A program made the position numbers and the translations under genes. The notes beneath the pieces are model-generated. The model was not told the DNA's origin. It searched no databases and saw only the letters and a list, made by a program, of their open reading frames with translations. Shown piece by piece: positions 43,229-58,523 of a stretch of 64,000 nucleotides of DNA (its first letter is position 1; each line of letters opens with the position of its first letter). Source of the stretch: Opitutales bacterium (GTDB taxonomy: Bacteria > Verrucomicrobiota > Verrucomicrobiia > Opitutales > PNEW01). Where the stretch lies: positions 96,001 through 160,000 of the forward strand of contig CBDANS010000006.1 of assembly GCA_965197745.1 (NCBI GenBank), read 5' to 3'.

Positions 43229-43487
43229 AAGATTCGCTCAGTATTCAGCATGCTAATCAACAGTCATTTATGTAAACCTTGAATATTATATTCTCTGAAA
43301 ACTAAAGATAGATCAGACATACAATGCACATTGAATTACAAACCATGCATATTTAGTGTTCACTGATTCATATACTGATACTTTGAATATAATATCAGCT
43401 AATTAGCCCATTGAAGCCTGACCCCCTTTTCCTTTTCTAGATCTATTAAAAATTGACATCAGCTATTGGGGAAGTTTGAATCTTAAA

Positions 43488-43595
43488 ATGCTTCGGTAGA
43501 GTGCACCCAGGTCCGCACGGAAAGGGCAATGCCCATCTACTAAAATTAAGGTGATCAATAATTGGTTCAGCCTAATTGCGGAATATGGCTGAAAA
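43488..43595 (+). ncRNA. Putative structured 5' leader RNA, copy A
   Basis: Pairings GTAGA/TCTAC, GGGC/GCCC, TTCAGCC/GGCTGAA; TCCGCA (43512-17) complementary to loop TGCGGA (43577-82); TTGACA at 43453. Confidence 0.65.
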
Positions 43596-43610
43596 TATGA
43601 ACGCTAACCG

Positions 43611-44261
43611 ATGCATGAGCCCAAGCCGAATCTCTCGAATCTAAAAAAACAAGCGAAGCTTATTTTTCGACAGCATAAGGAGAGATACTATCCTGTATGC
43701 GCACGGATAAGAAAAGCGCTTCCGCGATTTTTAGATAGCAGTGATAAGGAAATACTGGACTCTTCTTTCGCATTGCATGATGCCCAGGAAATAATCGCAC
43801 GCGAATACGGATTCAATAAATGGGAAGTGCTGAAAAATAACAAAATAACCATGAATAAATCAAATTCTCAAAATAATCATAATAAATATCTATGTGAAGC
43901 ATATCCTCAGTTGTTCGTAAGTGATGTCACACGCACAGCGAACTTTTATAAAGAAAACCTTGGGTTTGAAATCCAGTATTTATATGGAAAACCTCCCTTT
44001 TATGGAATGGTGAAAAGGGATAATATAGGATTGAACATCAGGTATGTTTGCAATCCCCCCATGGATCAAAATGAAAAGGAAAAAGAACAATTAATAAGTG
44101 CCAACATTCCTGTAAATGGAGTGAAATCGCTATTTCTTGAATTCAAGGAAAAGGAAGTTGATATTTTTCAGTCGTTAAAGTCACAACCTTGGGGCTGTGT
44201 AGATTTTATCATCAAAGACCCTGACGGAAATTTATTATTATTTTCAAATCATCCTGATTAA
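43611..44261 (+). CDS. LKKQAK-type N-terminal helical domain fused to a VOC/glyoxalase domain
   Basis: PNLSNLKKQAK...DAQEIIAREYGF..W, then LFVSDV..FY..LGF...QPWG..F..KDPDGN. Confidence 0.87.
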   Translation: MHEPKPNLSNLKKQAKLIFRQHKERYYPVCARIRKALPRFLDSSDKEILDSSFALHDAQEIIAREYGFNKWEVLKNNKITMNKSNSQNNHNKYLCEAYPQLFVSDVTRTANFYKENLGFEIQYLYGKPPFYGMVKRDNIGLNIRYVCNPPMDQNEKEKEQLISANIPVNGVKSLFLEFKEKEVDIFQSLKSQPWGCVDFIIKDPDGNLLLFSNHPD

Positions 44262-44340
44262 AAGACCTCACCATTCACTTGAGACGTACTGAGGCCAAAC
44301 GAAGCAGAAAAGGGTCTTAGTGCGATTTATTGTGGGTGCC

Positions 44341-45441
44341 TCATTCTTTAATATCCAGGATCCCGGCAACGGACGTTCGGATCTGAACCAGATGTTCCCG
44401 TACCCATTCAGGATTAAACCGCTCCGTCCCCATCCGGAGGGGACAACTGGCCATGGCCCCACTTATCCAGCCGATTTCCTGTGGCGCATCGCGGATCAGT
44501 AGTATGTCGTTTCCCGTCATACCGTCCGGTACCGGCCTCACTTCAGCGTAGGCATCTAGGAAGGTGCGCCAAAGCATCTTGGACCGATCCAGGTCATCCT
44601 TTATCCGTAAAATGCGACGGACCTGGGAAAGTTCGAACCCCCTTGAAATGAACCTGGCATTTCCAAAATCAAAGAACACGACAGTACCGTCAGACCGCCG
44701 CCGAATGTTCGACGGCACGAGATCATCATGACACCAGCCCATATCTTGTTCATCCCTGCCAACAAGTAGTTCACTCAATCGTCTTTTCAGTTTACGGCGG
44801 AGGTCTTGCAGTTCAGCGTAGTCTTCTTTGTAGGCAAGTCGCCTGGCAAAAGGAAGGTAATCATGCTCTTCACGAAGCACGGGATAATCCGTATCGATCA
44901 GGTCTCCTGCTGTATGTAGTTGCGCCACTGCGACGCCCAATTGACAAGATGCTTCCTCACTTACAGTAAAGCTTGTCACCGGTACTTCTTCAAACAGCAA
45001 TGCGGCACGGGATCCTTCGGGCGCGATCACTTCTGATGCGTATGACCCGTCATTTCGGTAGACCGCTGGGACGACACTTGCGCCATGAAGCGCGAGATCT
45101 GCGACGAAAAGAGCCTCGGCTTCAGCCTGATCGATGGATACTGGAGGACGGTAGATCTTCAGGTAGTAGGTGGGTCCAGCTGTGTTTACATGATAAACAT
45201 CCGAGTCACCGCGATAGTGAAAGGTGCAGCCAAGAGCTTCGGTGATATCGTACTCTGAATCAACACGCTGTAGAAGCACCTCTTCATCAAGAACTGAAGA
45301 CTGCGCTGGAAACACAGTGCGGTCATCAAGCTGGCCACTGTTTGAGATGTCGAGACCGTATCTTACGTGTCTCCCTTCAAGAACGCGTGACTTCTCAACG
45401 TCCTGCCTTGTCTCTTCTTTCTTCTTATTTTCTTTCTTCAT
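44341..45441 (-). CDS. APH/homoserine kinase type II-like phosphotransferase
   Basis: YYLKIY, A.LH, CHDDLVPSN, FFDFG. Confidence 0.85.
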   Translation of the reverse strand: MKKENKKKEETRQDVEKSRVLEGRHVRYGLDISNSGQLDDRTVFPAQSSVLDEEVLLQRVDSEYDITEALGCTFHYRGDSDVYHVNTAGPTYYLKIYRPPVSIDQAEAEALFVADLALHGASVVPAVYRNDGSYASEVIAPEGSRAALLFEEVPVTSFTVSEEASCQLGVAVAQLHTAGDLIDTDYPVLREEHDYLPFARRLAYKEDYAELQDLRRKLKRRLSELLVGRDEQDMGWCHDDLVPSNIRRRSDGTVVFFDFGNARFISRGFELSQVRRILRIKDDLDRSKMLWRTFLDAYAEVRPVPDGMTGNDILLIRDAPQEIGWISGAMASCPLRMGTERFNPEWVREHLVQIRTSVAGILDIKE

Positions 45442-45451
45442 TTAGTATCCT

Positions 45452-46276
45452 TTACAATTCTGCCCGCATAAAGCGTTCCCACAGTTCCTCTGCGATCCGA
45501 GAGGAATTCGTTCTTATGCCCTATCGCTGAAAGTAATCGCACAGGTTTCTAATGTCGCGCGTCAGCAACATGCAGGCACTGGAATCGACGCGGGGGTCAA
45601 CAGCCTGCGGAAAATCGATGATACGCAGTTCTCCATTATGATAGAGAATATTGTAAGCAGACAGGTCGGCATGTATCCTGTTGCAACGAAGCAGCAGTTC
45701 CACGTTGTCCATTGCCACATCATAGAGATGCAGCGCTTCTGCTTTCGAGAGAGTCACATTGCTCAACATTTGTCCCGGTCGAACACCCGTGCCTATGTAC
45801 TCCATCAGGATGATATCACCGGAATGCGCGTACGGCCTGGGCACGTTTGCGCCTTCTTCATAAAGCAATTCCATTGTTAACCACTCTCGCGCGATCCACA
45901 TGCTGTGGGCTGATCGTCTCCCGGTCCGTGATCGCCTCTTCATCGCGCGTGACAATCGCAGGTCATGAACGTTGTGGTGATCCTGATACTCCATGGCGCT
46001 GTTAAACGCTCTGAACTTTTGCGCCAGATAGACTTTGGCCGCGAGAAGATCAACTCCTACGGAAGTCCTCGCTTTACAGAGATAAACGGTTGCCTCCTTA
46101 CCGTCGTTAACCACACCGATGACCTCCGCAACCATGCCATCGAAAGACGTCAGAATAGCGTCCTTCTCACGGTCTGCTAGAAATTTTCTCTTGAATCCAC
46201 CCTCTGAGAGTGAATCACTGTCTCTTCTTCTATCATGCCGATGATTCGGCATGTTTTTCTGTTCTGATCGTGTCAT
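45452..46276 (-). pseudogene. RIO-family Ser/Thr kinase with in-frame TAG (45521-45523) near the C-terminus
   Basis: GKEATVY, AAKVY, MEYIG, IHADLSAYNIL, IIDFPQAVD; after TAG reads GIRT..IAEELWERFMRAEL to TAA 10 nt before the next gene. Confidence 0.8.
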
Positions 46277-46323
46277 GCTGTATTTCCATAGTAGGTAAAA
46301 TTTAAAATTGGACCCGTGGCATG

Positions 46324-46398
46324 AAAAAAAGCCATGGGTCTGTGTCACGCCCATGGCTTGGATCAGAAAAAGAAAAAGCCGTTCCAGGCGGAACGGCT
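46324..46398 (-). terminator. Two tandem intrinsic terminator-like hairpins in the RIO kinase leader
   Basis: Minus strand: agccgttcc-gcct-ggaacggct-ttttcttttt and aagccatggg...cccatggctt-ttttt. Confidence 0.75.
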
Positions 46399-46428
46399 AA
46401 ACTGCTCTTGATAGCACCCTGGTGCTAC

Positions 46429-46488
46429 CTAGTGCCGAAACCTACCGGGGAGTGACAACGCGAAGAATTGTCTCTTTGCTGCATTCAT
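46429..46488 (-). CDS. Putative 19-aa leader peptide MNAAKRQFFALSLPGRFRH
   Basis: SD GGAGAG, ATG 46488, TAG 46429-46431, directly upstream of the hairpins. Confidence 0.5.
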   Translation of the reverse strand: MNAAKRQFFALSLPGRFRH

Positions 46489-46750
46489 GATTATCTCTCC
46501 TTTATTGGTGTAGGTTTCGGGTTCCTGGTTAATGTTCATAATGCTTTATGTGATCGATGTATCGATGTCAATAAAGATCCCTTGCGACAATCTTCACGGA
46601 CGTGACGACGCGCGTCCCTCCATTTTTTTTTCGGGGGGCCATGTAATGTCTGTCGGCCATAGCCGCGCGTTTGCGGGGCGACGGCTGATCGTGGCCGCGA
46701 AAGAGTATAGAAACATAAAGGGGCTACGACAGGTTTACACCTGAGATGAG

Positions 46751-47508
46751 CTAATTATCTTCGACAGGTTTAAATTCAAAGAAAAAAGGTTGGTAAGCAC
46801 GTGCTGTAACCGGTTTACCGCGTTTCATTGGTGGTTGAAATTTCCAGTCTTTGATCGCGGTGAGTGCGGCAATCGCAAAATAGTCATTCGATGAAGATTT
46901 AAGCCCCGGGGCTCTGACGTTACCCTTGGAATCAATAAAAAATTCAACCAGTACCTGCCCGCTTGCTTCCACATCCCACATTTCTTTCGGAAAAACAGGT
47001 GAACTCGATTTAATTACTTTTGGTTCAAAATCCAATTCGTTAATATCTTTAACCGTAAAATATTGTCTATTTATCGTTTTATTACCGATCATCGCTTCAT
47101 CAATGATTGATGCATTGAATATACACCTCCACCTCTCTCCAAATTGTAAGATACTTTAACAAATACTCGACTCGAGTAAGCCACTCCATCGACAATTCTT
47201 GGAGCAAATTTCCATTGCTTAATCGCTCTAATCGAGGAACGGGCAAAAGCAAGGTGAGAGGTTGCAAATTCTACAAAATCATACTGTTGTCCCGTGTCAT
47301 CGACGATAAATACGATAATCGCAAATCCTTCAGTAATACCTGTATGGGCAACACTCGGTGGTAAATAAGGATTAACTGCTTTAAGCACCTGCAGGTCTCG
47401 ATTATTATTATCAGTCTTTTCGCTTTGACCCAACACGGGGAGATGAAAGCAAAAAATTATCAAAATAAAAATGAGGTGGGAGGGGAATAATCTGTAATAG
47501 GATTTCAC
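46751..47508 (-). CDS. Tandem TonB C-terminal domain protein, split into two ORFs (47089..47508, 46751..47092)
   Basis: Both parts have P..P...G...F..D..G and A+..WKF.P...G motifs; ATGA overlap; possible frameshift. Confidence 0.7.
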
Positions 47509-47837
47509 GGATAAAATACAGGGTTAAAACATAATCTAAGTTAATATCTTTAAATACACAACCCATGGCACGTTATAGTTCCACGATTGCAGAGCGACCG
47601 CGGCTGACCCCTTTTGGGCAATCATTACCGGACGCGACGAAGCGCGTCCCTCCATTTTTTTTCGGAGGGCCACGTAATGCCTGTCGGCCATAGCCGCGCG
47701 TTTGCGGGGCGACGGCTGATCGTGGCCGCTGATTTACAATTTTATAAATGGACAATAACAAAAGAAAGCAGCCACGATGTCACCTATTAGCTCATAGCTC
47801 TTGCTTAATCATGATGGACGCATAACAATAAAAATTT

Positions 47838-48161
47838 ATGCCTGCATTACGCAATCGATTAGAAAACGAATTAAGAAAACTGGAGGGGGTTGACGTTGCA
47901 TTGTATAAAGATACGAATCTGATGTGTGTCTATTATGGAGGCAAAGAATTTGCGCATTTTCAAGACGACAACGATTTGGATATACGATTATCTCAGAAAT
48001 TTATAAAACGAGAAAGCCTTACTCCTATTCATGATTCCAAATATCATCCGAATCGTTCAAGGAAATCCAGGTGGATGGAAATACGGTTTAAGAATGCAAA
48101 GCAAGTGGATGACTTGATTCGACTTATTAAGCGACTGATAAAAGAAGAATTAGCGCTATAA
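47838..48161 (+). CDS. Small luciferase-like (DUF5519-type) protein
   Basis: GKEFAHF...LDIRL motif, 107 aa. Confidence 0.65.
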   Translation: MPALRNRLENELRKLEGVDVALYKDTNLMCVYYGGKEFAHFQDDNDLDIRLSQKFIKRESLTPIHDSKYHPNRSRKSRWMEIRFKNAKQVDDLIRLIKRLIKEELAL

Positions 48162-48192
48162 GTAAAACACTCAGGAATTATGGGGGAAAAAA

Positions 48193-49632
48193 ATGTCCAA
48201 AAAAAATATCATGCTGATCATTTCGGACCAGCAACGCACGGACACCATCGGCTGTCTCAGTCTCACCCCTTGCCGCACTCCCCATATAGATGCATTAATT
48301 GATCGCGGGGTTATTTTCGAGAAGACCATCACCCCCACCCCCGTCTGCACCCCGGCGCGGGCTTCCATCTTTACCGGTCTCTACGCCCATCAAGCGAGGG
48401 GAACCTTTGCCAAAGATCACATCGGTCCTCTCCGCGATGACCAGATGACTTCCGATGCGACAGACATGCTGCTCAGCGATTACTCCTGTCGAGAAAAACC
48501 GTTGCTCACTGACGCACTTAAAGCAGCAGGTTATTACTGTTGCTATGCGGGCAAATGGCATCTCGGCAACGATATTTTTGATAACTGGTTTGAACACCAC
48601 CACGGCGAGACAGACCAGCAGTATATTGATTGGGCCAGCGAGCAGGGGTATCCGGACGCCTGGTCTTTAAGCGATTGGTCGGTTCGCAGTCACCGTGATC
48701 CACCGATGTCTATTCCCCTGGCAAAAGAAAATAAAATTCCTCCCGAGATTACTAACGACGCGTGGATCGCTGACCTTGCCATCGATATGATTGAACAGCG
48801 CCCGAAAGATAAACCCTTCATGGCTGTCTGCAGTATGATCGGACCTCACCCGCCATTCAAGATACCGGAACCGTATTTCAGCATGTATGACGACCAGGAG
48901 GTTCCCGAGCCCCCCAATTTCCACCTCACTGAAGGAAAACCAAAATGCAAGAAAGAGAGTTTCTATCACAAACTGTGGGAGGACCATGGCTCGGATTGGT
49001 CGGCGTGGGAAAAATCCGTGACGACTTACTGGGGATTTGTCACCCATATCGACGACCAGGTCGGACGTCTTGTCCAATGCCTCAAGGACGAGGACGTTTT
49101 TGAGGACACCCTCATTATTTTCTGTAGCGACCATGGCGAAATGCTGGGCCAGCATGGTCTGTGGCACAAAATGCAGGCATATGAGGAGTCGCTTCGCGTG
49201 CCGCTGGTTTTCAGCGCGCCATGGATCAAATGCGATAACCGTTCAACCGCGCTTAACTCGCTGATCGATATTGCCCCGACAATTCTTGGCGCTGCCGGCT
49301 GTTCGATTCCGGATACTTACGAGGGCGAGGACTTATCGGCGCTATTCAACGGGCAGTGTGACCGGACCGCTCGAAGCGTCCTCTTCAGCGAGCACAAACC
49401 GGATGGAGATTATCACCTCGAGACTGATTGGAGAATGGTGACGGACAATAAGATTAAGTACATCTGGAATCGGGGTGAGTGCGAAGAGCTTTACGATCTG
49501 GAATCAGATCCCTGGGAAAAGGTTAATCTAGCTGACAACGATCGGAATAACGAACAATTGGCCTTCTATCGAACCCAACTCGGTGAGTGGATGGAGAAAA
49601 CGAAAGACCCCCTGCACGAGAGTTTTAAATGA
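48193..49632 (+). CDS. Formylglycine-dependent sulfatase
   Basis: NI..IISDQQR, CTPARASIFTG, GKWH, SDHG, ELYDLESDPWE. Confidence 0.94.
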   Translation: MSKKNIMLIISDQQRTDTIGCLSLTPCRTPHIDALIDRGVIFEKTITPTPVCTPARASIFTGLYAHQARGTFAKDHIGPLRDDQMTSDATDMLLSDYSCREKPLLTDALKAAGYYCCYAGKWHLGNDIFDNWFEHHHGETDQQYIDWASEQGYPDAWSLSDWSVRSHRDPPMSIPLAKENKIPPEITNDAWIADLAIDMIEQRPKDKPFMAVCSMIGPHPPFKIPEPYFSMYDDQEVPEPPNFHLTEGKPKCKKESFYHKLWEDHGSDWSAWEKSVTTYWGFVTHIDDQVGRLVQCLKDEDVFEDTLIIFCSDHGEMLGQHGLWHKMQAYEESLRVPLVFSAPWIKCDNRSTALNSLIDIAPTILGAAGCSIPDTYEGEDLSALFNGQCDRTARSVLFSEHKPDGDYHLETDWRMVTDNKIKYIWNRGECEELYDLESDPWEKVNLADNDRNNEQLAFYRTQLGEWMEKTKDPLHESFK

Positions 49633-49830
49633 CCCGTTTTTGATTTTCATTGTGAGGTCCCGGATTTTTTAGCTTCGCCGCAACATTTATACTTAAATGT
49701 CGATGTGGAATGACTTATGTCGCCATTAGACAACTGATAGATTTTGAGTTTGAACTGATATTTGATAAATAAATACCAGTTAATTTACTCACTATCTATA
49801 ATACTGAATCTCTACACGCTCACCACAGGT

Positions 49831-50196
49831 ATGAAGAGCATAATTATAATCGAAGATGACCAAAGCTACCGTTCCATGTTATGCGGAGCGCTGGAAGATG
49901 AGGGATATAAAGTATCTACAGCTGAAAATGGCCTAATAGCGATAGATGTTCTCAAGACATTAACGCCTGATCTTATAATTACCGATGTCATAATGCAAGG
50001 AATGGATGGTTTTGAAGTAATCACACAAGTAAAGAATCAGAATCCTGATATTAAAATTATTGCCATTAGCGGAGGTGGAATGGCTGGACCTAAAACATAT
50101 TTAGAAATCGCTGAAGATTTAGGTGCAGATTACACGATTACAAAACCGTCAACGTTAAAAGAATTTCTAAGTGCAGTGAACAAACTGCTTAAATAA
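49831..50196 (+). CDS. Single-domain response regulator (receiver)
   Basis: IIEDD, TDVIM..MDG, AISGGG, KP. Confidence 0.9.
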   Translation: MKSIIIIEDDQSYRSMLCGALEDEGYKVSTAENGLIAIDVLKTLTPDLIITDVIMQGMDGFEVITQVKNQNPDIKIIAISGGGMAGPKTYLEIAEDLGADYTITKPSTLKEFLSAVNKLLK

Positions 50197-50308
50197 AATG
50201 GAAGAGGTTAATACCGAAATAGCATGAAGCGAATATGTAAGTGAATGAGAAAACGAAAGACCCTTGCACGAGCGTTTTAAATGACCCGATTCTGAATTTC
50301 TTATAAAG

Positions 50309-51109
50309 TCATGTGACTTTAACTTTCCTCCACCATTCTCCTTCAGCCCCTTCAGGAATGTATGGCGGTATTGACATTATTAATCGGTTCTCATCTACAA
50401 ATTTAATGTGAAATGACTCGTGCTTGCGTGTTTCGTAACCAGGAACCTGAGACAAGAATGGCCAGTTGTCAAAAGTAGATGGAGTCTCAAGCCGCGCTCC
50501 AACGTTCACACCGAATTCATTAAATAATTTATAAATCTCTGTATCACTAAAACTGACACCTTGTGATGGTGCTCTTGGGCGTTCAGTACCCGCTCTCATT
50601 ACACCGTAGTGCCCTTGAGTCACAAGAGACATCCATCGTCCGTGTTTATCTTCAGATTCCCAAGCACCAGCCAGGGGTGTATCACCAGCTCCGCTGAGCT
50701 TTCGCCAGTTTTCCTCAACAATCTTGCCATCAGGAAACGCTCGCTTGCATAAACAATGATTATCCTGAAAATTTACAGTATATGAAAGCGAGATTCCTTC
50801 GATGCGTGGATCACTGGCCATTTCAATATTATGCTCTGCCAACCATCCTTCCTCTAACTCAGTCCACGAACAGCTCCCTCCTATTGCGTAAAAGTGTGGA
50901 TACATTTCGACCGCTTCGGCCTCAGTGGGAGGCCAAGTTGCTGGCGGTTGACACTTTCCCTGGGTAAGAAGTTCAATAAAATGATCCCCTGTGTACACGG
51001 AGAAACCTGCCGCAGATCTGATAGCAACTGTTGTATCCCGTAATGGCACGAAATCCACATCTTCATCATCAGTGAGCATCTGCCAAAAACCATTCCATGG
51101 TTGTTTCAT
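50309..51109 (-). CDS. Hypothetical protein with two similar halves
   Basis: PWNGFWQ and PLAGAWE begin two ~130-aa related units. Confidence 0.7.
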   Translation of the reverse strand: MKQPWNGFWQMLTDDEDVDFVPLRDTTVAIRSAAGFSVYTGDHFIELLTQGKCQPPATWPPTEAEAVEMYPHFYAIGGSCSWTELEEGWLAEHNIEMASDPRIEGISLSYTVNFQDNHCLCKRAFPDGKIVEENWRKLSGAGDTPLAGAWESEDKHGRWMSLVTQGHYGVMRAGTERPRAPSQGVSFSDTEIYKLFNEFGVNVGARLETPSTFDNWPFLSQVPGYETRKHESFHIKFVDENRLIMSIPPYIPEGAEGEWWRKVKVT

Positions 51110-51217
51110 ATCTTTGGATCCTATTTATGTTTCTCTACCTAAAATACTCAATTTATGAATATGTGAAAAGTCGAGAAATGTCACTGTAAGTTGATATGCC
51201 GCGCAGAAGAACTGGAA

Positions 51218-51278
51218 GGGGTCAGGCTTTGCAAACTGGCATTTTTTAATTATATGCCAGTTTGCAGAACCTGACCCC
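51218..51278. repeat. Palindromic repeat (second copy 54953-55019; related 42771-42832)
   Basis: ggggtcagg..tgcaaactggca...tgccagtttgca..cctgacccc. Confidence 0.8.
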
Positions 51279-51284
51279 ATTTTT

Positions 51285-52700
51285 TCACTCGGCATACCCA
51301 TGATAGTTTGCGATCGCCAGGCCGGCGGCAATGCCGGTGAAGGTATCGAATTCAATCAGCTTTCGAGGGAATATTTGCTGCAACAGTTCTTGAACGGGTG
51401 GAAGCTTCGAAGAGCCACCGGTGCAGATCACTGCGTCGATTCCATCAACGCTGCAACCTGACGATAAGAGCAGTTCCTCAATCGCATCACTGATCCTCGC
51501 CAACATCTCTTCCATGTATTGGCGCAACTCCTGTCGGGTGATGGTCACTCGGAGCTCGAGCTCGGGCACCCGGATGACGGATTCATGATCCTTGGTGAGC
51601 CCGATCTTGGCCTCCTCTATGGCCTGAAAGACCCTGTAGGATTGGTTCATAGAGATCAATAGCAGCAATCGACTTAGTTTCTGCTTCGTCTTCCCTTTTT
51701 CACGCATACCATGGGTGATCAATTCTCTGAGTTCACCCCGGTTGAGTTCGTGTGTATGCTGCCAGATGAGCAGCCGTTCGGCGAATTCCCCGAATCGAAA
51801 CGCTACCTTCTTTTCATCGCCGACACTCTTGCTTGTAATCAATGTTCGCTCGCCCAGTTCCGGGAATATGGCTCTCCGGTATATCAGCTTATCGATATCA
51901 TCCCCGCCCAGTTCGAGTCCCAGCGTGCCCAGAATCTTGAATGCCTTCGTGGTTGTCTTCAAAAGGCAAAGGTCAAGCGTGCCCCCGCCAAAGTCGAAGG
52001 TCAGATAGGATCTGTCGGGGCGCGTTTCGCCCCGATGCAGGAAGCTCAGAGAGGCTGCGACCGGCTCCGGATAAAAGGAAGCTTTCGAGAATCCTGCGAA
52101 ATCACACGCTTCTCCCATTCGGCTTAACGCGACCTCATTCGCTGTTGCCGAATCCCCGCGATAATTAACCGGTCGACCCACATGCGGCGTAAGCAGCGGG
52201 CCGCCCGCATGGGTCTCGATCCCCTTGCGGATCTCTTCCAGAATTGGGGTCGCGAGTGCCACCACGCGCAGGGTCCTGTCGAATACGTTGATGGCATTCA
52301 GCGAAGCATCCCCAAGCCATGTCTTGATACTTCGAAAAAGCCGGCTCGGGAGATGTGAATCGGTAAATGCGTGCACCTTAACCCAGTCCTCAAAGTAACC
52401 TGCCATGGTATCTATGCTCAAAAGAAATTCACCCACCTCTTCCTTCTCTAATTGAATCCTCCTTCCTCTGTTGTCCTCGAGATAGGATTCTATCGCATGC
52501 TGTCCGACACGGGGGAAAAAGTCGCGGTTGAGATACAATGCGCTCGGCAGTACTGCGGGAACGGCGGCAGCGGCGTCCAGGCCGAGCATCCGAAGTTTTT
52601 TTCCGTCAAATAGCGCAACCGATGAATTCGTCGTACCAAAATCAACGCCCACTGCTATTCTGCTCGAGCTGCGGTGAAGATGGGAAGGGCTTAAGGGCAT
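51285..52700 (-). CDS. Hsp70-family protein (YegD-like)
   Basis: GVDFGTTNS, EPVAA, DFGGGTLD, TGGSS; lacks the DnaK substrate-binding domain. Confidence 0.88.
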   Translation of the reverse strand: MPLSPSHLHRSSSRIAVGVDFGTTNSSVALFDGKKLRMLGLDAAAAVPAVLPSALYLNRDFFPRVGQHAIESYLEDNRGRRIQLEKEEVGEFLLSIDTMAGYFEDWVKVHAFTDSHLPSRLFRSIKTWLGDASLNAINVFDRTLRVVALATPILEEIRKGIETHAGGPLLTPHVGRPVNYRGDSATANEVALSRMGEACDFAGFSKASFYPEPVAASLSFLHRGETRPDRSYLTFDFGGGTLDLCLLKTTTKAFKILGTLGLELGGDDIDKLIYRRAIFPELGERTLITSKSVGDEKKVAFRFGEFAERLLIWQHTHELNRGELRELITHGMREKGKTKQKLSRLLLLISMNQSYRVFQAIEEAKIGLTKDHESVIRVPELELRVTITRQELRQYMEEMLARISDAIEELLLSSGCSVDGIDAVICTGGSSKLPPVQELLQQIFPRKLIEFDTFTGIAAGLAIANYHGYAE

Positions 52701-52932
52701 GCGGGTAAAAGATTAGGTGGCGCCAACTGTCCTGAAAACAGAGGGATTAACCTATACAAGCTTTTGGCCGCTATTGTTCAAGAATAAAATTACATAAATA
52801 TTTTACAACCAACCTCTTATAAATTAATACTAACATCGAAAAACAATCATGTCAAGTTCTGACTTGGCCCTATTTGTCGCATGCACACAGTGAAAAATGA
52901 AAAGAGAATCAAAACGCGGTCTGATCAATCAC

Positions 52933-52960
52933 TTGACAAAGAACGGTATCGGGTTAACTT
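52933..52960 (+). promoter_or_regulatory. Sigma70-like promoter shared with 57176-57203
   Basis: TTGACAaagaacgg(t/c)atc(g/c)ggtTAAC(t/c)T near-identical at both loci. Confidence 0.65.
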
Positions 52961-52969
52961 TTTTCATAG

Positions 52970-53078
52970 ACGCTCGGAGGGAGCGGCCAGTCCACGGAAA
53001 GAGTTAACCTCACCTCTCTCGAATCCATACAGTCAATTGGACCTATGGACCAGCTTGTCAGGTGGACAACAAGCGCAA
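52970..53078 (+). ncRNA. Putative structured 5' leader RNA, copy B
   Basis: GTCCAC (52990-95) complementary to loop GTGGAC (53062-67) in hairpin GCTTGT/ACAAGC; GAG/CTC and TCCATA/TATGGA stems. Confidence 0.7.
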
Positions 53079-53097
53079 ATTGGAAAGTAGGTTATAT

Positions 53098-54936
53098 ATG
53101 AAGCAGTCGATTGCTGCAAAAGCAAATCTGGACCAGCTGAAGAAGCAGGCCAAAACGCTGATCAAAGCGTTTAATTCGAATGACACCGAGGCGGCCGCAC
53201 GCCTCGCGGCGACACATCCCCGCTTAACCGGCCTGGATGTAACGGAAGTTCTGAAACAGAAGCTCGCCCTTAATGACGCACAATGGGTTATCGCCCGTGA
53301 GCATGGATTCAAAGATTGGACGGAACTCAAACATGAAAAACTCCGAGCTGAGTACTTTGAAGCCGCTCATCGTGGTGATACCGCACTACTCCGGAAACAG
53401 ATTAAATGCTGGCCGGATTTGATCCAAAAAAAGATGGAAAACGGGCTCAGTGCTCTTCATCTATCCATTGTCTCCGGCCATGCCGACGCTGTTCGGTTCT
53501 TACTCGAATGCGGAGCAAATCCAACAAACGGGTATGGGTATGGTCAAGGAACGCGTTCAACAACTCCGCTGCAACTGGCTAGAGATGCTGAACATGCAGA
53601 AGTAATTACTGTTATTGAAGACTAGCTGAAACACAGGGTTGAGGCCACGACGTTGGAGACACCGTTGATTACGGCCGTTGAAAATAAAGACTTCGAAACC
53701 GTCAGGAAGTTGCTGACCGAGCATCCTGAGAGTGTCAATGAAATCAACGAACGAGGTGGAACTGCTCTCATCCGGGCTTCGCATCTTAACGATCTGGAAT
53801 GTGTGCAACTGTTGCTCGATAAAGGAGCGGACGCCGCGTATCTTTCACCCAATCCGGTGGCCGCCGATTTTTTGCGCAACGGCCACGCCGCTATCCATCG
53901 GGTGGTCCATCACCGATGTCAGGATCAGGAGAAAAGTAGGACGATTCTACGCATGCATCTCGATCATGGAGCGCCCTATGACCATGAAATCGCTGTATGG
54001 ATGGGCGACCTCGACACCGTCATTGAAAAGACCGGGAATAACAATAAGCGAAAGGATGAAGCGCTCATTGCCGCGGCGTAAGTGGGTGAACTGCCCATCA
54101 TTCGCTGGCTCCTGGATCACGGAGTGGATCCCAACACTCCGCGGGACATCGATATTGGCGATTCGATCTTTCACGAGGAAGCAGCAGCTGTCTGGGAAGC
54201 AGCGGCCCAAGGTCACATTGAAGTGGTTCGCGAACTGCTTGCTCGCGGAGCAAAGCCTAACGAGGTCCTCTACGCAAGCGGCTGGCCGGTAACAATCGCA
54301 GATACATACGGGCATACCGACGTCAAAGAGCTGCTTATCGCGCACGGGGCGCCGCCTCCGATTGATTGGTATGAAGATTCGTTGGAGGATATAAAGAACA
54401 AGCTACCCATGCAGATGGAAAAACTCCATGAAGATTGGGCCATGCCTATCGCTGGCCGCACCGGCCGCGTTGATCTGGTCGAATACCTGCTGAGTCTTGA
54501 TCCCCGGATCGATGACGAGATGTGGACAAAGTGTCTGCAATATACCTTGTACGCTATATCTCCGAATAGTCCACAAATACTCAGTTTGCTTATCGACCAC
54601 AGGGCGAATCCAAACGCAATTAACGAACAGGGCGAGTCCGTTCTGCATTACTTATGTATGCACCATTCTCGCGAGAATCCAGCCAAAGTTGAGAACGCCC
54701 GTATGTTGGTCGAAAAAGGCGCTAAAATCAACGTCCTCGATCATGTTAAGAAGTCGACACCACTCGGCTACGCCACCCGTGAAGGCGAATACGATTTGGC
54801 CAGGGTATTCCTTGAACTGGGTGCCGATCCTAACCTCGGTGGTGAAGATTGGGCGCACCCGTTACGCTGGGCAGAGAAAAAAGGCCATAAGAAGATCGCT
54901 GAACTATTAAAGGCACACGGTGCCATTATTGAGTAA
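53098..54936 (+). pseudogene. LKKQAK-type N-terminal domain plus ankyrin repeats, with in-frame TAG (53623-25) and TAA (54079-81)
   Basis: Three consecutive ORFs in one frame; ANLDQLKKQAK...DAQWVIAREHGF..W; ankyrin motifs SALH, TPL, LL..GA.PN. Confidence 0.85.
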
Positions 54937-55040
54937 TCATAAGGGTGATCTGAAAAGGGTCGGGCGATGCAAACTGGCATATATTTAAAAAATACCAGTT
55001 TGCAGAACCCGACCCTTTTTGATTTCTTCGAGTAAAAGAT

Positions 55041-55436
55041 ATGAAAAATCTCAAAGCAATTATGCCGTTCTTCGTCGTTGAGAACGTTTCAGAAACTATT
55101 GAATTCTATACCGGCAAGCTGGGATTCAACATATCTTTTCAACAGACACTTGATGGAGATGATACACCATCATTTTGCATTCTTAATCGTGATGAGATCT
55201 CAATTATATTTAAGCGTATCGGAATGGGGATTACAGCTACACCCAACTCGATGAACCACGAGTGGGCCAGGTGGGATGCCTACATTGTAACTGAAGATCC
55301 GGACGCACTTTTCGAAGAATTAAAGGATAAAGGAGTGAATTTTCATCGTGAATTGGAAAACACCGAAGATGGGTTAAGGGCTTTTGAAGTTCGAGACAAC
55401 AACGGATATGTATTATGTTTCGCGCGATTGCTCTAG
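55041..55436 (+). CDS. VOC/glyoxalase/bleomycin-resistance family protein
   Basis: FY..KLGF, WDAYI...DPDAL, GLRAFEVRDNNGYVLCF. Confidence 0.88.
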   Translation: MKNLKAIMPFFVVENVSETIEFYTGKLGFNISFQQTLDGDDTPSFCILNRDEISIIFKRIGMGITATPNSMNHEWARWDAYIVTEDPDALFEELKDKGVNFHRELENTEDGLRAFEVRDNNGYVLCFARLL

Positions 55437-55689
55437 TATGAATATCTCGGTTAATTACCGCGTTACCTGTTTGATGTATGACATTATAAGAATCGAGAAA
55501 TCGAAACGGGTCTACGCGAGATAATCTGAATAACGCGTTTATAAAATCTATTGCTCCGATCGTTTAATAGCGCATTATTCAAAATCGGTTGTGCACCTAC
55601 TCACAATACTTTATTGGTACGCGAGACTGGTTGGAGATCATTCGAAAAGTAAGAATTGTTGAAATGACTTCAAAAAACCCACCCTATTA

Positions 55690-56709
55690 ATGAGCTTGCG
55701 AGTGAGTATAGATGAGGTGCTCGCATATCGTTACCGAGCTAACCATCTCGATAAACGACTAAAAGCTGGTTCAGAACCTTTCGCTGCACGTGCGGGGTTG
55801 CAAGACAGTGGACCTCGTGCTGGTGTAATATCCCTGCATGCCCGTGTTAATGGTGTCACAGCCTCTTTATGGGAACAGCCAGACATGGCTCAGGTATGGG
55901 GTCCACGTGGTGCGATCTACATTGTGCCGCGCAATGATATAGCCGTCTTCACACTTGGTCAGCTGCCTCGGGATTCTGGTTCTCTAAAGTTGATAGAAAA
56001 AGCGGTTGCTTCGATTAAAAAAATATTAGCTGGCCGCACCCTACGAAAATCTGAGGTGCTTTCCAGATTTCGTTCTCTGAATCTTGGTGTAGACTTTTTA
56101 CCAGCCGGAAAAACTGGATCTATCCTTCCTCGCTGGGATGCTCGTGATACTCTTATACGCGCTGTCGATGCACCTGACGCAGATATTGAAGAGTGTAGAA
56201 TCGAATTGGCCCGCCGGTTTTTTCATTATTTAGGTCCATCCACATTGAAGGGTCTCAAGCAGTGGGCAGGTATTTCGCGAGAGGATGCCCAGATGACATT
56301 CTCATCTTTATCCAACGAACTGTTGAACATAGAAGTTGACGGGCACAAAGCGTGGTGTCTTGAGTCGGATGTGGACGATCTCAACAAACCACGTGCTAAA
56401 AGAGGGGTTAGATTACTTCCTGCGGATGATCCGTATTTAAATTACCGGACTGCAAAAGAATTTCTTGTGCCTGAACATAAATTTCAATTGCAGCTTTGGC
56501 CGAAAGCTCCTCCTCCTGGAGCTTTGCTTGTCGATGGTATTATCTCGGGCATATGGAGAAGGAATCAATGGCATTTTGTCTTTAAACCGTGGAGAAAAAA
56601 AATTTCTAATAACGTAGCTGACGCCGTAACCGAAGAAATATCTCGATTTCCACTTCAGGGAGATCCGACTAAGGCGAGAGTGGAGTGGTTATCACCATTG
56701 AAGAGGTGA
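55690..56709 (+). CDS. AlkZ/YcaQ-like winged-helix DNA glycosylase family protein
   Basis: GLQDS, SLHARV, GPRGA, R.F...GPST...W.G, VRLLP..DPYL, LVDG...G.W. Confidence 0.75.
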   Translation: MSLRVSIDEVLAYRYRANHLDKRLKAGSEPFAARAGLQDSGPRAGVISLHARVNGVTASLWEQPDMAQVWGPRGAIYIVPRNDIAVFTLGQLPRDSGSLKLIEKAVASIKKILAGRTLRKSEVLSRFRSLNLGVDFLPAGKTGSILPRWDARDTLIRAVDAPDADIEECRIELARRFFHYLGPSTLKGLKQWAGISREDAQMTFSSLSNELLNIEVDGHKAWCLESDVDDLNKPRAKRGVRLLPADDPYLNYRTAKEFLVPEHKFQLQLWPKAPPPGALLVDGIISGIWRRNQWHFVFKPWRKKISNNVADAVTEEISRFPLQGDPTKARVEWLSPLKR

Positions 56710-56772
56710 ATTGTTTAAAATATATTATAGAAAATAACCCTAATCCAATATTGTTAGAAGAAGGAGTTGATT

Positions 56773-57141
56773 ATGAAAATCACTGAATTCGCATTTGTAG
56801 GACATCCAGTAGAGAGTATGAAGCGTGCGCAGAAATTTTACGAAGAAGTGCTCCGACTTCCACCACCAAAAGTCCTCGGTAAAGGATGGTTTGAATACGA
56901 AATAGGCCCCTACACTCTCGCTATCACTACTGCGTGGTCTGATAATAAACCACCTGAACGACCAAGTTGTGGACTTGCTCTTGAAGTCGAAGACTTTGAC
57001 GAAGCTATCTAGCATATTAAGGACTGCGGTGTTAGCTTTGATATTGAACCTGCCGAGTACGAGTATTGTTATAGTGCGGTCATTACGGATCCCGATGGCA
57101 ATCAGTTCGGTATTCATAAGAGAAAACCAGGTAAATGTTAA
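56773..57141 (+). pseudogene. VOC-family protein with in-frame TAG (57010-57012)
   Basis: RA.KFYEEVL, ALEVEDFDEAI*HIK...ITDPDGNQFGIHKRK to TAA 57141; AAGGAG SD. Confidence 0.85.
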
Positions 57142-57212
57142 ATCATCGCGATATAATAGGAGTCCGTTCAATAACTTGACAAAGAACGGCATCCGGTTAA
57201 CCTTTATGATAG

Positions 57213-57314
57213 TTGCTCAGAGGGAGCCTCCCAGTCCGCGGTAAGGGTTTAACCCACCTTTAGAAGAAGTCTATCAACCTTCTTTCTGCCTGCAACTGCG
57301 GACACCAGGCGCAA
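57213..57314 (+). ncRNA. Putative structured 5' leader RNA, copy C
   Basis: GTCCGC (57234-39) complementary to loop GCGGAC (57298-303) in hairpin GCCTG/CAGGC; GGGT/ACCC and AGAAGAAG/CTTCTTTCT stems. Confidence 0.7.
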
Positions 57315-57332
57315 TAATAGAGAGGAGGTCGT

Positions 57333-58523
57333 ATGACCAGGAAGTTACCAGAGAAAGCCAATCTTGAGCATCTCAAGAAACAGGCAAAGCAGTTATTAAA
57401 AGACCACAAAGCAGGTGAGCAACAGGCCTGCAATCGTATCAGGGAATATCATCTCCGACTGTCCAAATTACCGGAAAAGGACATCCCCGGTGCTGAATTC
57501 TCCTTGCAAGATGCACAACTCACGGTCGCGCGCGAGTACGGTTTTTCCAGTTGGCCAAAAATGGTTTCCGCGATTAAATCGACTGATAAGCGGAAGCTAA
57601 TATTTAATGCTTCTAATCGTGGAGATCTCGATGAAGTCAAAAGACTGATTAAATCTTACAGCTTCGCGAAAGGGGAACTGGACGAAGCTTTATGTCGTGC
57701 CACATGTAATATGCGGGGTGATAAGGAGTCAGATTTTCGCGCTTGCGCGGATTACCTCATTGACCGTGGTGCAGACGTCAATGCTGAGAGTGAGGATAAC
57801 TACGGCCGTATTATTCTCGGATCGTGTGAATTCCTAAATCCTGTAGGACTGAAATACTTAATTGATCATGGGGCTATAGTGAATGTGCCTGAGCGCATAA
57901 CCAAGTACCCTGCTAATAATACGCCATTGAATATGGTGCTGGGTACATATTCTCGTAAACCAGCTGAGAAACACCGATGTCTCGACCTGCTCATAGAAGC
58001 CGGGGCCCACTACGAGGATGGCCCGGTTATGGATATCCACATGGGACGCGATGATAATCTTAAAGAACGACTGAATATGAATTCTCATTTGCTGCATGCT
58101 CAATTCGATCTCAATTACGGTAATTATCTAACGCTTTTCGGAGTGAGCTTATTACATATCGCAGCTGAGTATATTGAGAAAGCGTGTGTCGATGTCCTCC
58201 TTGATCATGGAGCGGATATAGATGAGAAAGCAATAATCGGAAAGAATGGCGTGGGTGGACAAACACCTATTTACCATGTAATCGGGGGCAACCAGGGTAA
58301 ATGCTACCCGTTGTTTGAACACCTGATGGAGAAGGGACCTGATCTAACCGTGAAAGCCTATATTCAAGGGAATGTCGTTATTAACCATGAAAAGGATCTT
58401 GCTTACGACGAGGTGCTGGAGCTGTCCCCTTTAGGCTATGCCCTGAGGTACGAGCACGAACCTACATGGCGTGAAGCATCTCGGGAAGCAGCGAAACTAC
58501 GTGAACTCGGCGCGCCGATGTAA
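57333..58523 (+). CDS. LKKQAK-type N-terminal domain plus ankyrin repeats
   Basis: LPEKANLEHLKKQAK...LQDAQLTVAREYGFSSW; LLHIAAE, LLDHGADID, GQTPI. Confidence 0.88.
   Translation: MTRKLPEKANLEHLKKQAKQLLKDHKAGEQQACNRIREYHLRLSKLPEKDIPGAEFSLQDAQLTVAREYGFSSWPKMVSAIKSTDKRKLIFNASNRGDLDEVKRLIKSYSFAKGELDEALCRATCNMRGDKESDFRACADYLIDRGADVNAESEDNYGRIILGSCEFLNPVGLKYLIDHGAIVNVPERITKYPANNTPLNMVLGTYSRKPAEKHRCLDLLIEAGAHYEDGPVMDIHMGRDDNLKERLNMNSHLLHAQFDLNYGNYLTLFGVSLLHIAAEYIEKACVDVLLDHGADIDEKAIIGKNGVGGQTPIYHVIGGNQGKCYPLFEHLMEKGPDLTVKAYIQGNVVINHEKDLAYDEVLELSPLGYALRYEHEPTWREASREAAKLRELGAPM

Follow-up and report, generated by a model that had tools for sequence, protein, structure and literature searches.

Among the regulatory leader RNAs described so far, the autoregulatory leaders (e.g., ribosomal-protein leaders, the threonyl-tRNA synthetase operator and the L7Ae/K-turn feedback) and the pseudoknotted translational riboswitches with sequestration of the Shine-Dalgarno (SD) sequence (e.g., the ZTP/pfl, preQ1 and SAM-II types) are the closest to the element described here; RNA-binding output domains of the ANTAR and CAT/PRD type antiterminate at leaders of other genes. 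We analysed a stretch of 64,000 nucleotides (nt) from an Opitutales bacterium (contig CBDANS010000006.1, positions 96,001 to 160,000; the whole stretch is called the window below, and positions are counted within it). Three genes of the window, starting at 43611, 53098 and 57333, encode proteins with a common N-terminal domain, the head, and belong to one portable 5′ module, composed of a TTGACA box, a conserved leader RNA of ~135 nt and a four-helix head of ~78 amino acids (aa), with varied C-terminal modules behind. This module works like a translational leader switch, with a cis-regulatory leader that is possibly autoregulatory.

As in autoregulatory leaders, the RNA is a structured 5′ untranslated region (UTR) tied to one protein family, with an occluded ribosome-binding site, and it lies in the 5′ UTR of the domain gene or its operon, a likeness in the linkage sense only. 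It differs from them in that the common denominator is a small portable domain with varying partners and not a whole protein, in that there is no known primary RNA target for the leader to mimic (binding being putative here), and in that the leader is conserved across many phyla and not within one. With the pseudoknotted riboswitches it has in common a compact fold with long-range helices, conserved unpaired bases, a variable linker and an SD-occluding helix; the two parts of a translational riboswitch, a covarying sensor domain and a platform that occludes the SD or start region, are both present. Unlike in riboswitches, the regulated genes share a domain and not a pathway, and unlike for the ZTP/pfl, preQ1 and SAM-II types, there is no match in Rfam 15 and no ligand candidate. 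The ANTAR and CAT/PRD domains resemble the head in being small, helical and joined to many partner domains, with conserved leaders as proposed targets, but the head forms the N-terminus of the product of the regulated gene, and the RNA should act at translation initiation. Finally, the bacterial ankyrin and VOC/bleomycin-binding-like superfamilies cover the C-termini of the three window genes and leave the shared head and leader unexplained, the same head being found on Clp_N, Lon-N, FliG, FliM, BFN, receiver, kinase and AAA+ proteins.

The elements of the three loci are as follows (bit scores and E values are those of the covariance model R1, see below):

43453–43458, forward strand: TTGACA box 1, 21 nt before leader 1; possible −35 element
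43479–43613, forward strand: leader 1, 54.7 bits, E 2e-11; ends on the ATG of the VOC-type gene
43611–44261, forward strand: gene 1, 216 aa; N-terminal domain at ~43611–43841, VOC/glyoxalase at ~43908–44237
52933–52938, forward strand: TTGACA box 2, 21 nt before leader 2
52959–53100, forward strand: leader 2, 82.6 bits, E 1.8e-18; ends on the ATG at 53098
53098–54936, forward strand: gene 2; N-terminal domain at 53098–53337, then ankyrin repeats, with in-frame stops
53098–53625: open reading frame (ORF) of gene 2 as called, ending at the first in-frame stop
57176–57181, forward strand: TTGACA box 3, 21 nt before leader 3
57202–57335, forward strand: leader 3, 106.2 bits; best match of the genome
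57333–58523, forward strand: gene 3, 396 aa; N-terminal domain at 57333–57575, then ankyrin repeats

The leader folds into a pseudoknotted RNA with an occluded start region

The leader invoked by the original prediction exists, as a conserved structured RNA of ~135 nt that lies directly 5′ of every domain gene of the genome and ends on the start codon. The three gene copies claimed are those of the window; the whole genome encodes five, the additional ones being a VOC-type gene of 218 aa (L002) and an ankyrin-type gene of 434 aa (L005) on another contig. Leader 1 is the most diverged of the three window leaders. The leader model ends at the start codon at 53098, which was therefore taken as the start of gene 2 in preference to a GTG further upstream (53062). 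A TTGAC box is also present upstream of L002, L005 and many foreign loci; as a scan with the sigma-70 consensus called no full promoter at the three window leaders and yielded fewer sites overall than shuffles did (18 against 25.4), we report TTGACA as a conserved box only.

Rfam 15 gave no match at the gathering score in the 64-kb window or in 20 leader-bearing foreign loci, and a search of leader 2 against Rfam at E ≤ 10 returned two chance matches to snoRNAs only. The leader itself was found upstream of relatives labelled Verrucomicrobiota, Acidobacteriota, Planctomycetota, Latescibacterota, Gemmatimonadota, Chloroflexota classes, Dormiibacterota, Poribacteria and Kribbella, as well as in Proteobacteria (Paraburkholderia, Caballeronia, Variovorax and others). 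It thus occurs under about ten phylum-level labels, and its carriers include the cultivable Paraburkholderia, Kribbella and Acidicapsa.

RNAalifold, applied to 32 leaders aligned with MAFFT without reference to a structure, predicted the helices PK2 and P2, with compensatory changes in both. The covariance model R1 was built and 88 of its matches were aligned (alignment A6). This alignment is fitted to P1, P2 and PK2, so that the counts for these helices are biased; PK1 and P4 lie outside the model. In the resulting topology, PK1 pairs the 3′ part of the P1 loop with the bases right after P2, PK2 pairs a GUCCGC-type strand with the loop of a downstream hairpin (P4/P4b), and P4 pairs a pyrimidine-rich strand with the SD or start region. 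In leader 3, the pairings, read from its row in A6, are:

57215–57218 with 57224–57227: P1
57220–57223 (loop bases) with 57257–57260: PK1
57234–57239 with 57298–57303: PK2
57245–57248 with 57252–57255: P2
57278–57287 (anti-SD strand) with 57319–57328 (SD strand): P4
57288–57292 with 57306–57310: P4b
57333–57335: start codon ATG of the gene

Over the 86 distinct rows of A6, the six-helix structure has 84.4% of its cells paired, compared with 74.5% in shuffles. None of 500 shuffles reached the observed value on any measure, and slid controls had 38–53% of cells paired. By helix, the paired cells are:

P1: 92.7%, in the model
P2: 99.7%, in the model
PK2: 91.4%, in the model; changes on both sides in 7/7 pairs
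P4: 83.9%, outside the model; 6/10 pairs changed on both sides
P4b: 51% in A6, outside the model; statistically not shown

We attribute the low score of P4b to a misregistered 3′ strand in A6, this helix being outside the model; P4b is visible in single A6 rows and in the fold of L018. For PK1, 83 unique leaders have a mean of 4.41 contiguous pairs, compared with 2.84 ± 0.09 (maximum 3.14 in 1000 trials) for partners exchanged among leaders, and many PK1 variants are fully compensated. The compensatory changes in P1, P2, PK1 and PK2 define a covariation-supported, sensor-like domain, and P4 is also found in the minimum-energy folds of leader 3 and L018. A pairing proposed by RNAalifold between the conserved GG that precedes P2 and the CC that follows it has no compensatory changes; it was rejected because the same CC pairs in PK1 with such changes.

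The covariation establishes the fold of the leader together with its occluded start region. As the P4/P4b hairpin pairs with the SD or start region, the folded leader should hold translation off.

Linkage of the leader to the domain

In the genome under study, the five significant R1 matches (E ≤ 2e-10) each lie directly before one of the five domain genes; a sixth match has an E value of 0.098. A metagenome scan with a degenerate 24-nt core pattern gave at least 120 matches, from which 80 loci were fetched. Seven of these had less than 250 nt downstream, which left 73 evaluable loci, and the domain is encoded in 71 of them, on the same strand and starting 67–123 nt past the motif. The two exceptions hold only the 5′ half of the RNA, without the 3′ half.

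Three genome samples gave the same picture; relatives within them are not independent, and searches of more than 40 genomes were run under stricter filters. In a phylum sample of 151 genomes, leader and domain were found together in the same six genomes and neither was found in the other 145. A domain match adjoins 16 of the 17 leaders in this sample; the remaining one is followed by an ankyrin protein whose head is shortened. A class sample of 121 genomes around an acidobacterial carrier, which includes one leader and one domain gene from a genome flagged as unpublished (G261), contained 37 leaders in 25 genomes. A domain match adjoins 34 of them, the three exceptions being a leader cut by a contig end, one followed by a shortened head and one weak match of 99 nt without the domain. 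In a Burkholderiaceae-level sample of 101 genomes around a Caballeronia carrier, all four leaders precede a domain match. The shortened heads, in which the first helix is joined almost directly to the last two, were observed in two unrelated genomes (L092 in G080:C8 and L104 in G273:C18), both times after a full leader.

Among about 130 leaders, we did not see the leader directly recruited to another gene family, with the exceptions of a split operon and of the locus L105, to which we return below. The split operon is found in seven loci (L028, L030, L036, L042 at 1315–2773, L043, L044 and L049). The ATG of the leader opens here a 336-aa ORF without a head, with a weak SnoaL-like match under the Pfam cut-off, and the second gene encodes a stand-alone head of ~90 aa. 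Even without contiguity, leader and head thus share one operon, and the head persists here with no partner attached.

The linkage of the RNA to the domain is near-exclusive, which is very unusual for a cis-regulatory RNA. It is also independent of the C-terminal partner, the leader being present with ankyrin, Lon-N (L050), BFN (L055 and L073) and VOC partners (the last in the genome under study).

The domain family and the window genes

The ORFs at 43611, 53098 and 57333 were predicted to share an N-terminal domain and then to diverge. Their alignment agrees, with 23 invariant columns over the first ~78 residues, including the motifs NL..LKKQAK and L.DAQ...ARE.GF..W, and divergence afterwards. 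A profile of the five copies of the genome, searched against 1.84 billion proteins, found 7172 cluster representatives at E ≤ 1e-3 and 2708 at E ≤ 1e-10. Of the checks proposed with the original prediction, the fusion partners were tabulated for the best 150 of these representatives (see below), and the co-occurrence of the domain profile with the RNA covariance model gave the near-exclusive linkage on the RNA side reported above.

The prediction that the domain has no established function agrees with the databases. No Pfam family, ANTAR included, matched residues 1–80 of the three window products at E ≤ 0.01. NCBIfam gave only sub-threshold chance matches on the N-terminal domain (17 bits for a cut-off of 70), and the ESM Atlas gave only clusters of ‘hypothetical protein’ with scores of 0.83–0.85, under the trust level. 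The source annotations of the relatives are either ‘hypothetical protein’ or the name of the partner domain. A full-text literature search, in which subscription journals were not covered, found nothing on the leader or the domain. AlphaFold models of the domain consist of four helices, with a predicted local distance difference test score (pLDDT) of 86 (from five sequences) and 84 (from 66 sequences), which agrees with the helical character claimed initially. A complex prediction for two domain copies scored 0.22, with the mark at 0.42, which speaks neither for nor against dimerisation.

Synonymous codons vary freely at conserved residues of the domain, which argues that the conservation acts on the protein; a constraint at the RNA level behind the protein conservation was therefore rejected. 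In contrast to this free codon use, the conserved Asn before the LKKQAK helix (column 14 of alignment A7) has the codon AAT in 45 of 55 sequences, and this also in carriers rich in G+C. A phage or mobile-virus origin of the domain was also rejected, as a viral contig collection held one relative only.

The C-terminal partners were classified among the best 150 of the 7172 representatives (Pfam at E ≤ 1e-5, one group per protein). They fall into 16 Pfam groups, and 74 of the 150 proteins have no Pfam family, many of these being short enough to be the domain alone. Ankyrin repeats are the most frequent partner (38 proteins, one also with Clp_N), followed by Clp_N (eight, two also with a ClpX zinc finger), FliG_C (four), the bifunctional-nuclease (BFN) domain (four, one also with Clp_N), FliG_N, FliM and the Lon substrate-binding domain (Lon-N) (three each) and FapA_N, the receiver domain, HATPase_c (one with HisKA) and VOC/glyoxalase (two each). 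Sigma-54 AAA, T2SSE, winged helix, pentapeptide and archaeal-type ATPase domains occur once each. The module is thus reusable and its C-termini are swappable, as had been proposed, with a range far wider than VOC and ankyrin. Among the proteins of the 80 best loci found with the domain protein, classified at E ≤ 1e-12, 50 have ankyrin repeats, two BFN, one Lon-N, one VOC and 26 no family.

The head begins within the first 25 residues in 199 of 251 domain instances from 203 stored proteins and is internal or tandem in the remaining 52. In some proteins (P0001, P0006, P0018 and others), two or three tandem heads alternate with ClpX-type zinc fingers, and Clp_N repeats come after them; here the head must be more than an N-terminal tag.

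In the window, Pfam confirmed the VOC, ankyrin and ankyrin C-terminal modules assigned to the three products at the outset. Residues 100–209 of the 43611 product match VOC/Glyoxalase (PF00903) with 41.2 bits (gathering cut-off 20.6), with a weak likeness to bleomycin-binding proteins under the NCBIfam cut-off. Ank_2 is found in the 53098 and 57333 products with 35.4 and 41.4 bits (cut-off 27.3). The frame of the 53098 gene is broken by TAG at 53623–53625 and TAA at 54079–54081, and ankyrin repeats resume in the same frame up to 54936, the in-frame continuations having ankyrin matches of 42.6 and 123.2 bits. Both stops are covered by contigs of four public runs (three studies), for which no differing letter is listed. 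The gene probably encodes a truncated product of 175 aa or is a recent pseudogene of a ~610-aa protein; an alternative genetic code was ruled out, as the two stop codons are different.

Three further genes lie between the two ankyrin-type genes, a VOC gene (55041–55436), a gene for an AlkZ-like DNA glycosylase (55690–56709; PF06224, 90.8 bits) and, just 5′ of leader 3, a small broken VOC gene. A contig (X1) of one run skips 91 bases at 54950–55042, from the end of the ankyrin frame to the start of the VOC gene at 55041, and is a deletion variant in another sample. The broken VOC gene (56767–57142) contains an in-frame TAG (57010–57012) beyond which the VOC-like reading resumes. The contigs of all four runs break within this gene, at 57007–57009, which suggests a population variant or a branch of the assembly graph at the TAG codon. 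Judging from these gene assignments, i.e., the VOC genes, the AlkZ-like glycosylase and the bleomycin-binding-like VOC part, the neighbourhood might deal with genotoxins. Elsewhere in the window, two near-identical G+C-rich hairpins are located 1 kb apart on the forward strand (46598–46627 and 47630–47659); both have the same T-rich tail behind them and resemble a terminator-like element present as a repeat.

A proposed autoregulation and its alternatives

The best single reading of the module, which we advance tentatively from the sequence comparisons, is autoregulation by binding of the domain to its own leader. The head would be the ligand of the leader. Proteins bearing the head, as they accumulate, would bind and stabilise the knotted fold on their own mRNAs and on those of their paralogues. 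Binding would stabilise the P1/P2/PK1/PK2 core and leave the anti-SD strand free to pair with the SD, turning translation off, so that all head carriers would share one negative feedback loop. More speculatively, the anti-SD strand may pair in the ON state with the conserved purine run before P2, as read from A6. What we infer here is that binding takes place and that it represses, as well as any primary target that the domain may have in the cell.

We favour this feedback because the regulated genes share no pathway but only the head, because the leader was not seen directly recruited elsewhere among about 130 leaders, and because the split operon keeps leader and head together. That the regulated genes have a domain in common and no pathway fits a protein ligand better than a metabolite. 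In a more far-reaching form, which is conceivable and to be held with more reserve, the head would represent a new RNA-binding fold, with a doubly pseudoknotted operator on its own mRNA as the target. Box, operator and head would then constitute a self-limiting cassette, and the regulon would be defined by a protein tag.

Several observations weigh against autoregulation, the first of them from counting the linkage from the side of the domain. The strict co-occurrence of domain and leader that had been claimed holds from the RNA side, but not from this one. Among the 80 best loci found with the protein, the leader lies immediately upstream in 71 (E ≤ 2e-10) and about 1 kb upstream in seven; the only copy at L064 is weak and diverged, and a locus of the VOC type (L053) has no leader even with filters off. 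The class sample contains 46 domain genes, of which 34 have the leader, one is cut by the contig start and 11 have no leader, as rechecked with filters off (one of them, L097, has a weak adjacent match with E 0.0012 under these settings). Four of these 11 are of a VOC subtype (L093–L096) and the rest are diverged ankyrin-like forms. The genomes G154 and G155 each have one leaderless gene out of two domain genes, that of G154 (L106) being also of the VOC type, and a further leaderless domain gene is found in the 101-genome sample (G319). L093–L096 and L106 are close to the 43611 protein of the window; both VOC-type genes of the genome under study have the leader, that of the 43611 copy being the weakest (54.7 bits). 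To these genes must be added the 52 of 251 domain copies that are internal or tandem. A leader can also occur without the head, as the Planctomycete leader L105 precedes an ankyrin ORF that has none.

The domain itself gives little hint of RNA binding. Described as basic and helical by the original prediction, it is only mildly basic, with a mean net charge of +2.5 (range −10 to +10). The structure prediction and Foldseek comparison proposed with it revealed no likeness to a solved fold: both models were compared with solved structures and gave no Foldseek match at E < 1 (best VIA Z 3.6–3.7), and they match no solved RNA-binding fold. For such predicted models, the absence of a structural match shows neither that the fold is new nor that a relative is missing. 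On the RNA side, the leader keeps near-invariant unpaired nucleotides across about ten phylum-level labels, a trait found more typically in metabolite aptamers than in operators bound by proteins. Single-sequence folding energies are no better than those of shuffles (z −1.35 to +1.2), so that the case for the fold rests on covariation; the nested folding model is blind to pseudoknots and these energies were not used as evidence. Finally, leader and domain are neighbours in the DNA, and co-inheritance would therefore produce most of their co-occurrence without any interaction.

The alternative that survives best, although we consider it unlikely, is a riboswitch for a small molecule or an ion, in which the knotted fold would be the aptamer and P4 the expression platform. 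The head would not bind RNA in this case but would act in the same physiology, for example by binding the same ligand or a common cellular partner. The complex fold, with its two long-range helices, highly conserved unpaired stretches and SD-occluding helix, speaks for a riboswitch, as do its conservation across many phylum-level labels, the dissimilarity of the domain model to any nucleic-acid-binding fold and the fact that the domain also works without the leader. Metabolite riboswitches, however, usually control several families of one pathway, and this leader almost never heads other families (71/73, 17/17 and 4/4 leaders head domain genes in the metagenome, phylum and Burkholderiaceae-level sets). 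The partners, i.e., ankyrin, Clp_N, FliG, Lon-N, BFN, VOC and others, have no common metabolic theme, and no Rfam family was matched.

Common descent, without any interaction, is quite improbable as a full account. Box, leader and domain would be the conserved 5′ end of an old family that swaps its 3′ parts, the leader being a generic element of translational control whose tie to the domain is mechanistically meaningless. Leader and domain are indeed contiguous nearly always, their distribution is patchy and accessory-looking (6/151, 25–28/121 and 4–5/101 genomes), and losses are seen on both sides, of the leader in some subfamilies and of the domain in one case. On the other hand, the split operon retains a stand-alone head behind a headless gene controlled by the leader, shortened domains retain the leader, and, except for the split operon and L105, about 130 leaders include no direct recruitment to other families.

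The weakest alternative is that another trans-acting factor (a global RNA-binding protein or a small RNA) or temperature reads the leader and imposes a common stress-dependent programme on the head carriers: the predicted stable local structure of the SD-sequestering hairpin, the conserved GGA-rich stretches in the leader and at the SD and the many quality-control modules for proteins among the partners (Clp_N, ClpX zinc finger, Lon-N) would suit it, but two covarying pseudoknot helices would be superfluous in a thermometer or a simple protein site, no factor emerged as a candidate and the carrier lineages need not share one global regulator, which makes it very improbable.

The leader looks like a widespread class of structured cis-regulatory RNA without a family in Rfam 15, and the domain has thousands of members without a Pfam or NCBIfam model; their near-exclusive pairing gives one testable hypothesis for both together. 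If the ligand is a small molecule, the leader would represent a new riboswitch class, with the domain as a clue to the ligand. If the ligand is the domain, the head would be a new RNA-binding fold and the module an unusual design in which feedback comes with a portable tag. The self-limiting cassette would then have been placed before dozens of unrelated modules (ankyrin, VOC, Clp_N, Lon-N, FliG, FliM, BFN, receiver, kinase and AAA+), all head-bearing proteins would be counted together by a shared translational feedback, and the regulon would be defined by the tag and not by a pathway. Either way, many proteins now annotated as ‘hypothetical’ or ‘ankyrin repeat’ would gain a functional handle.

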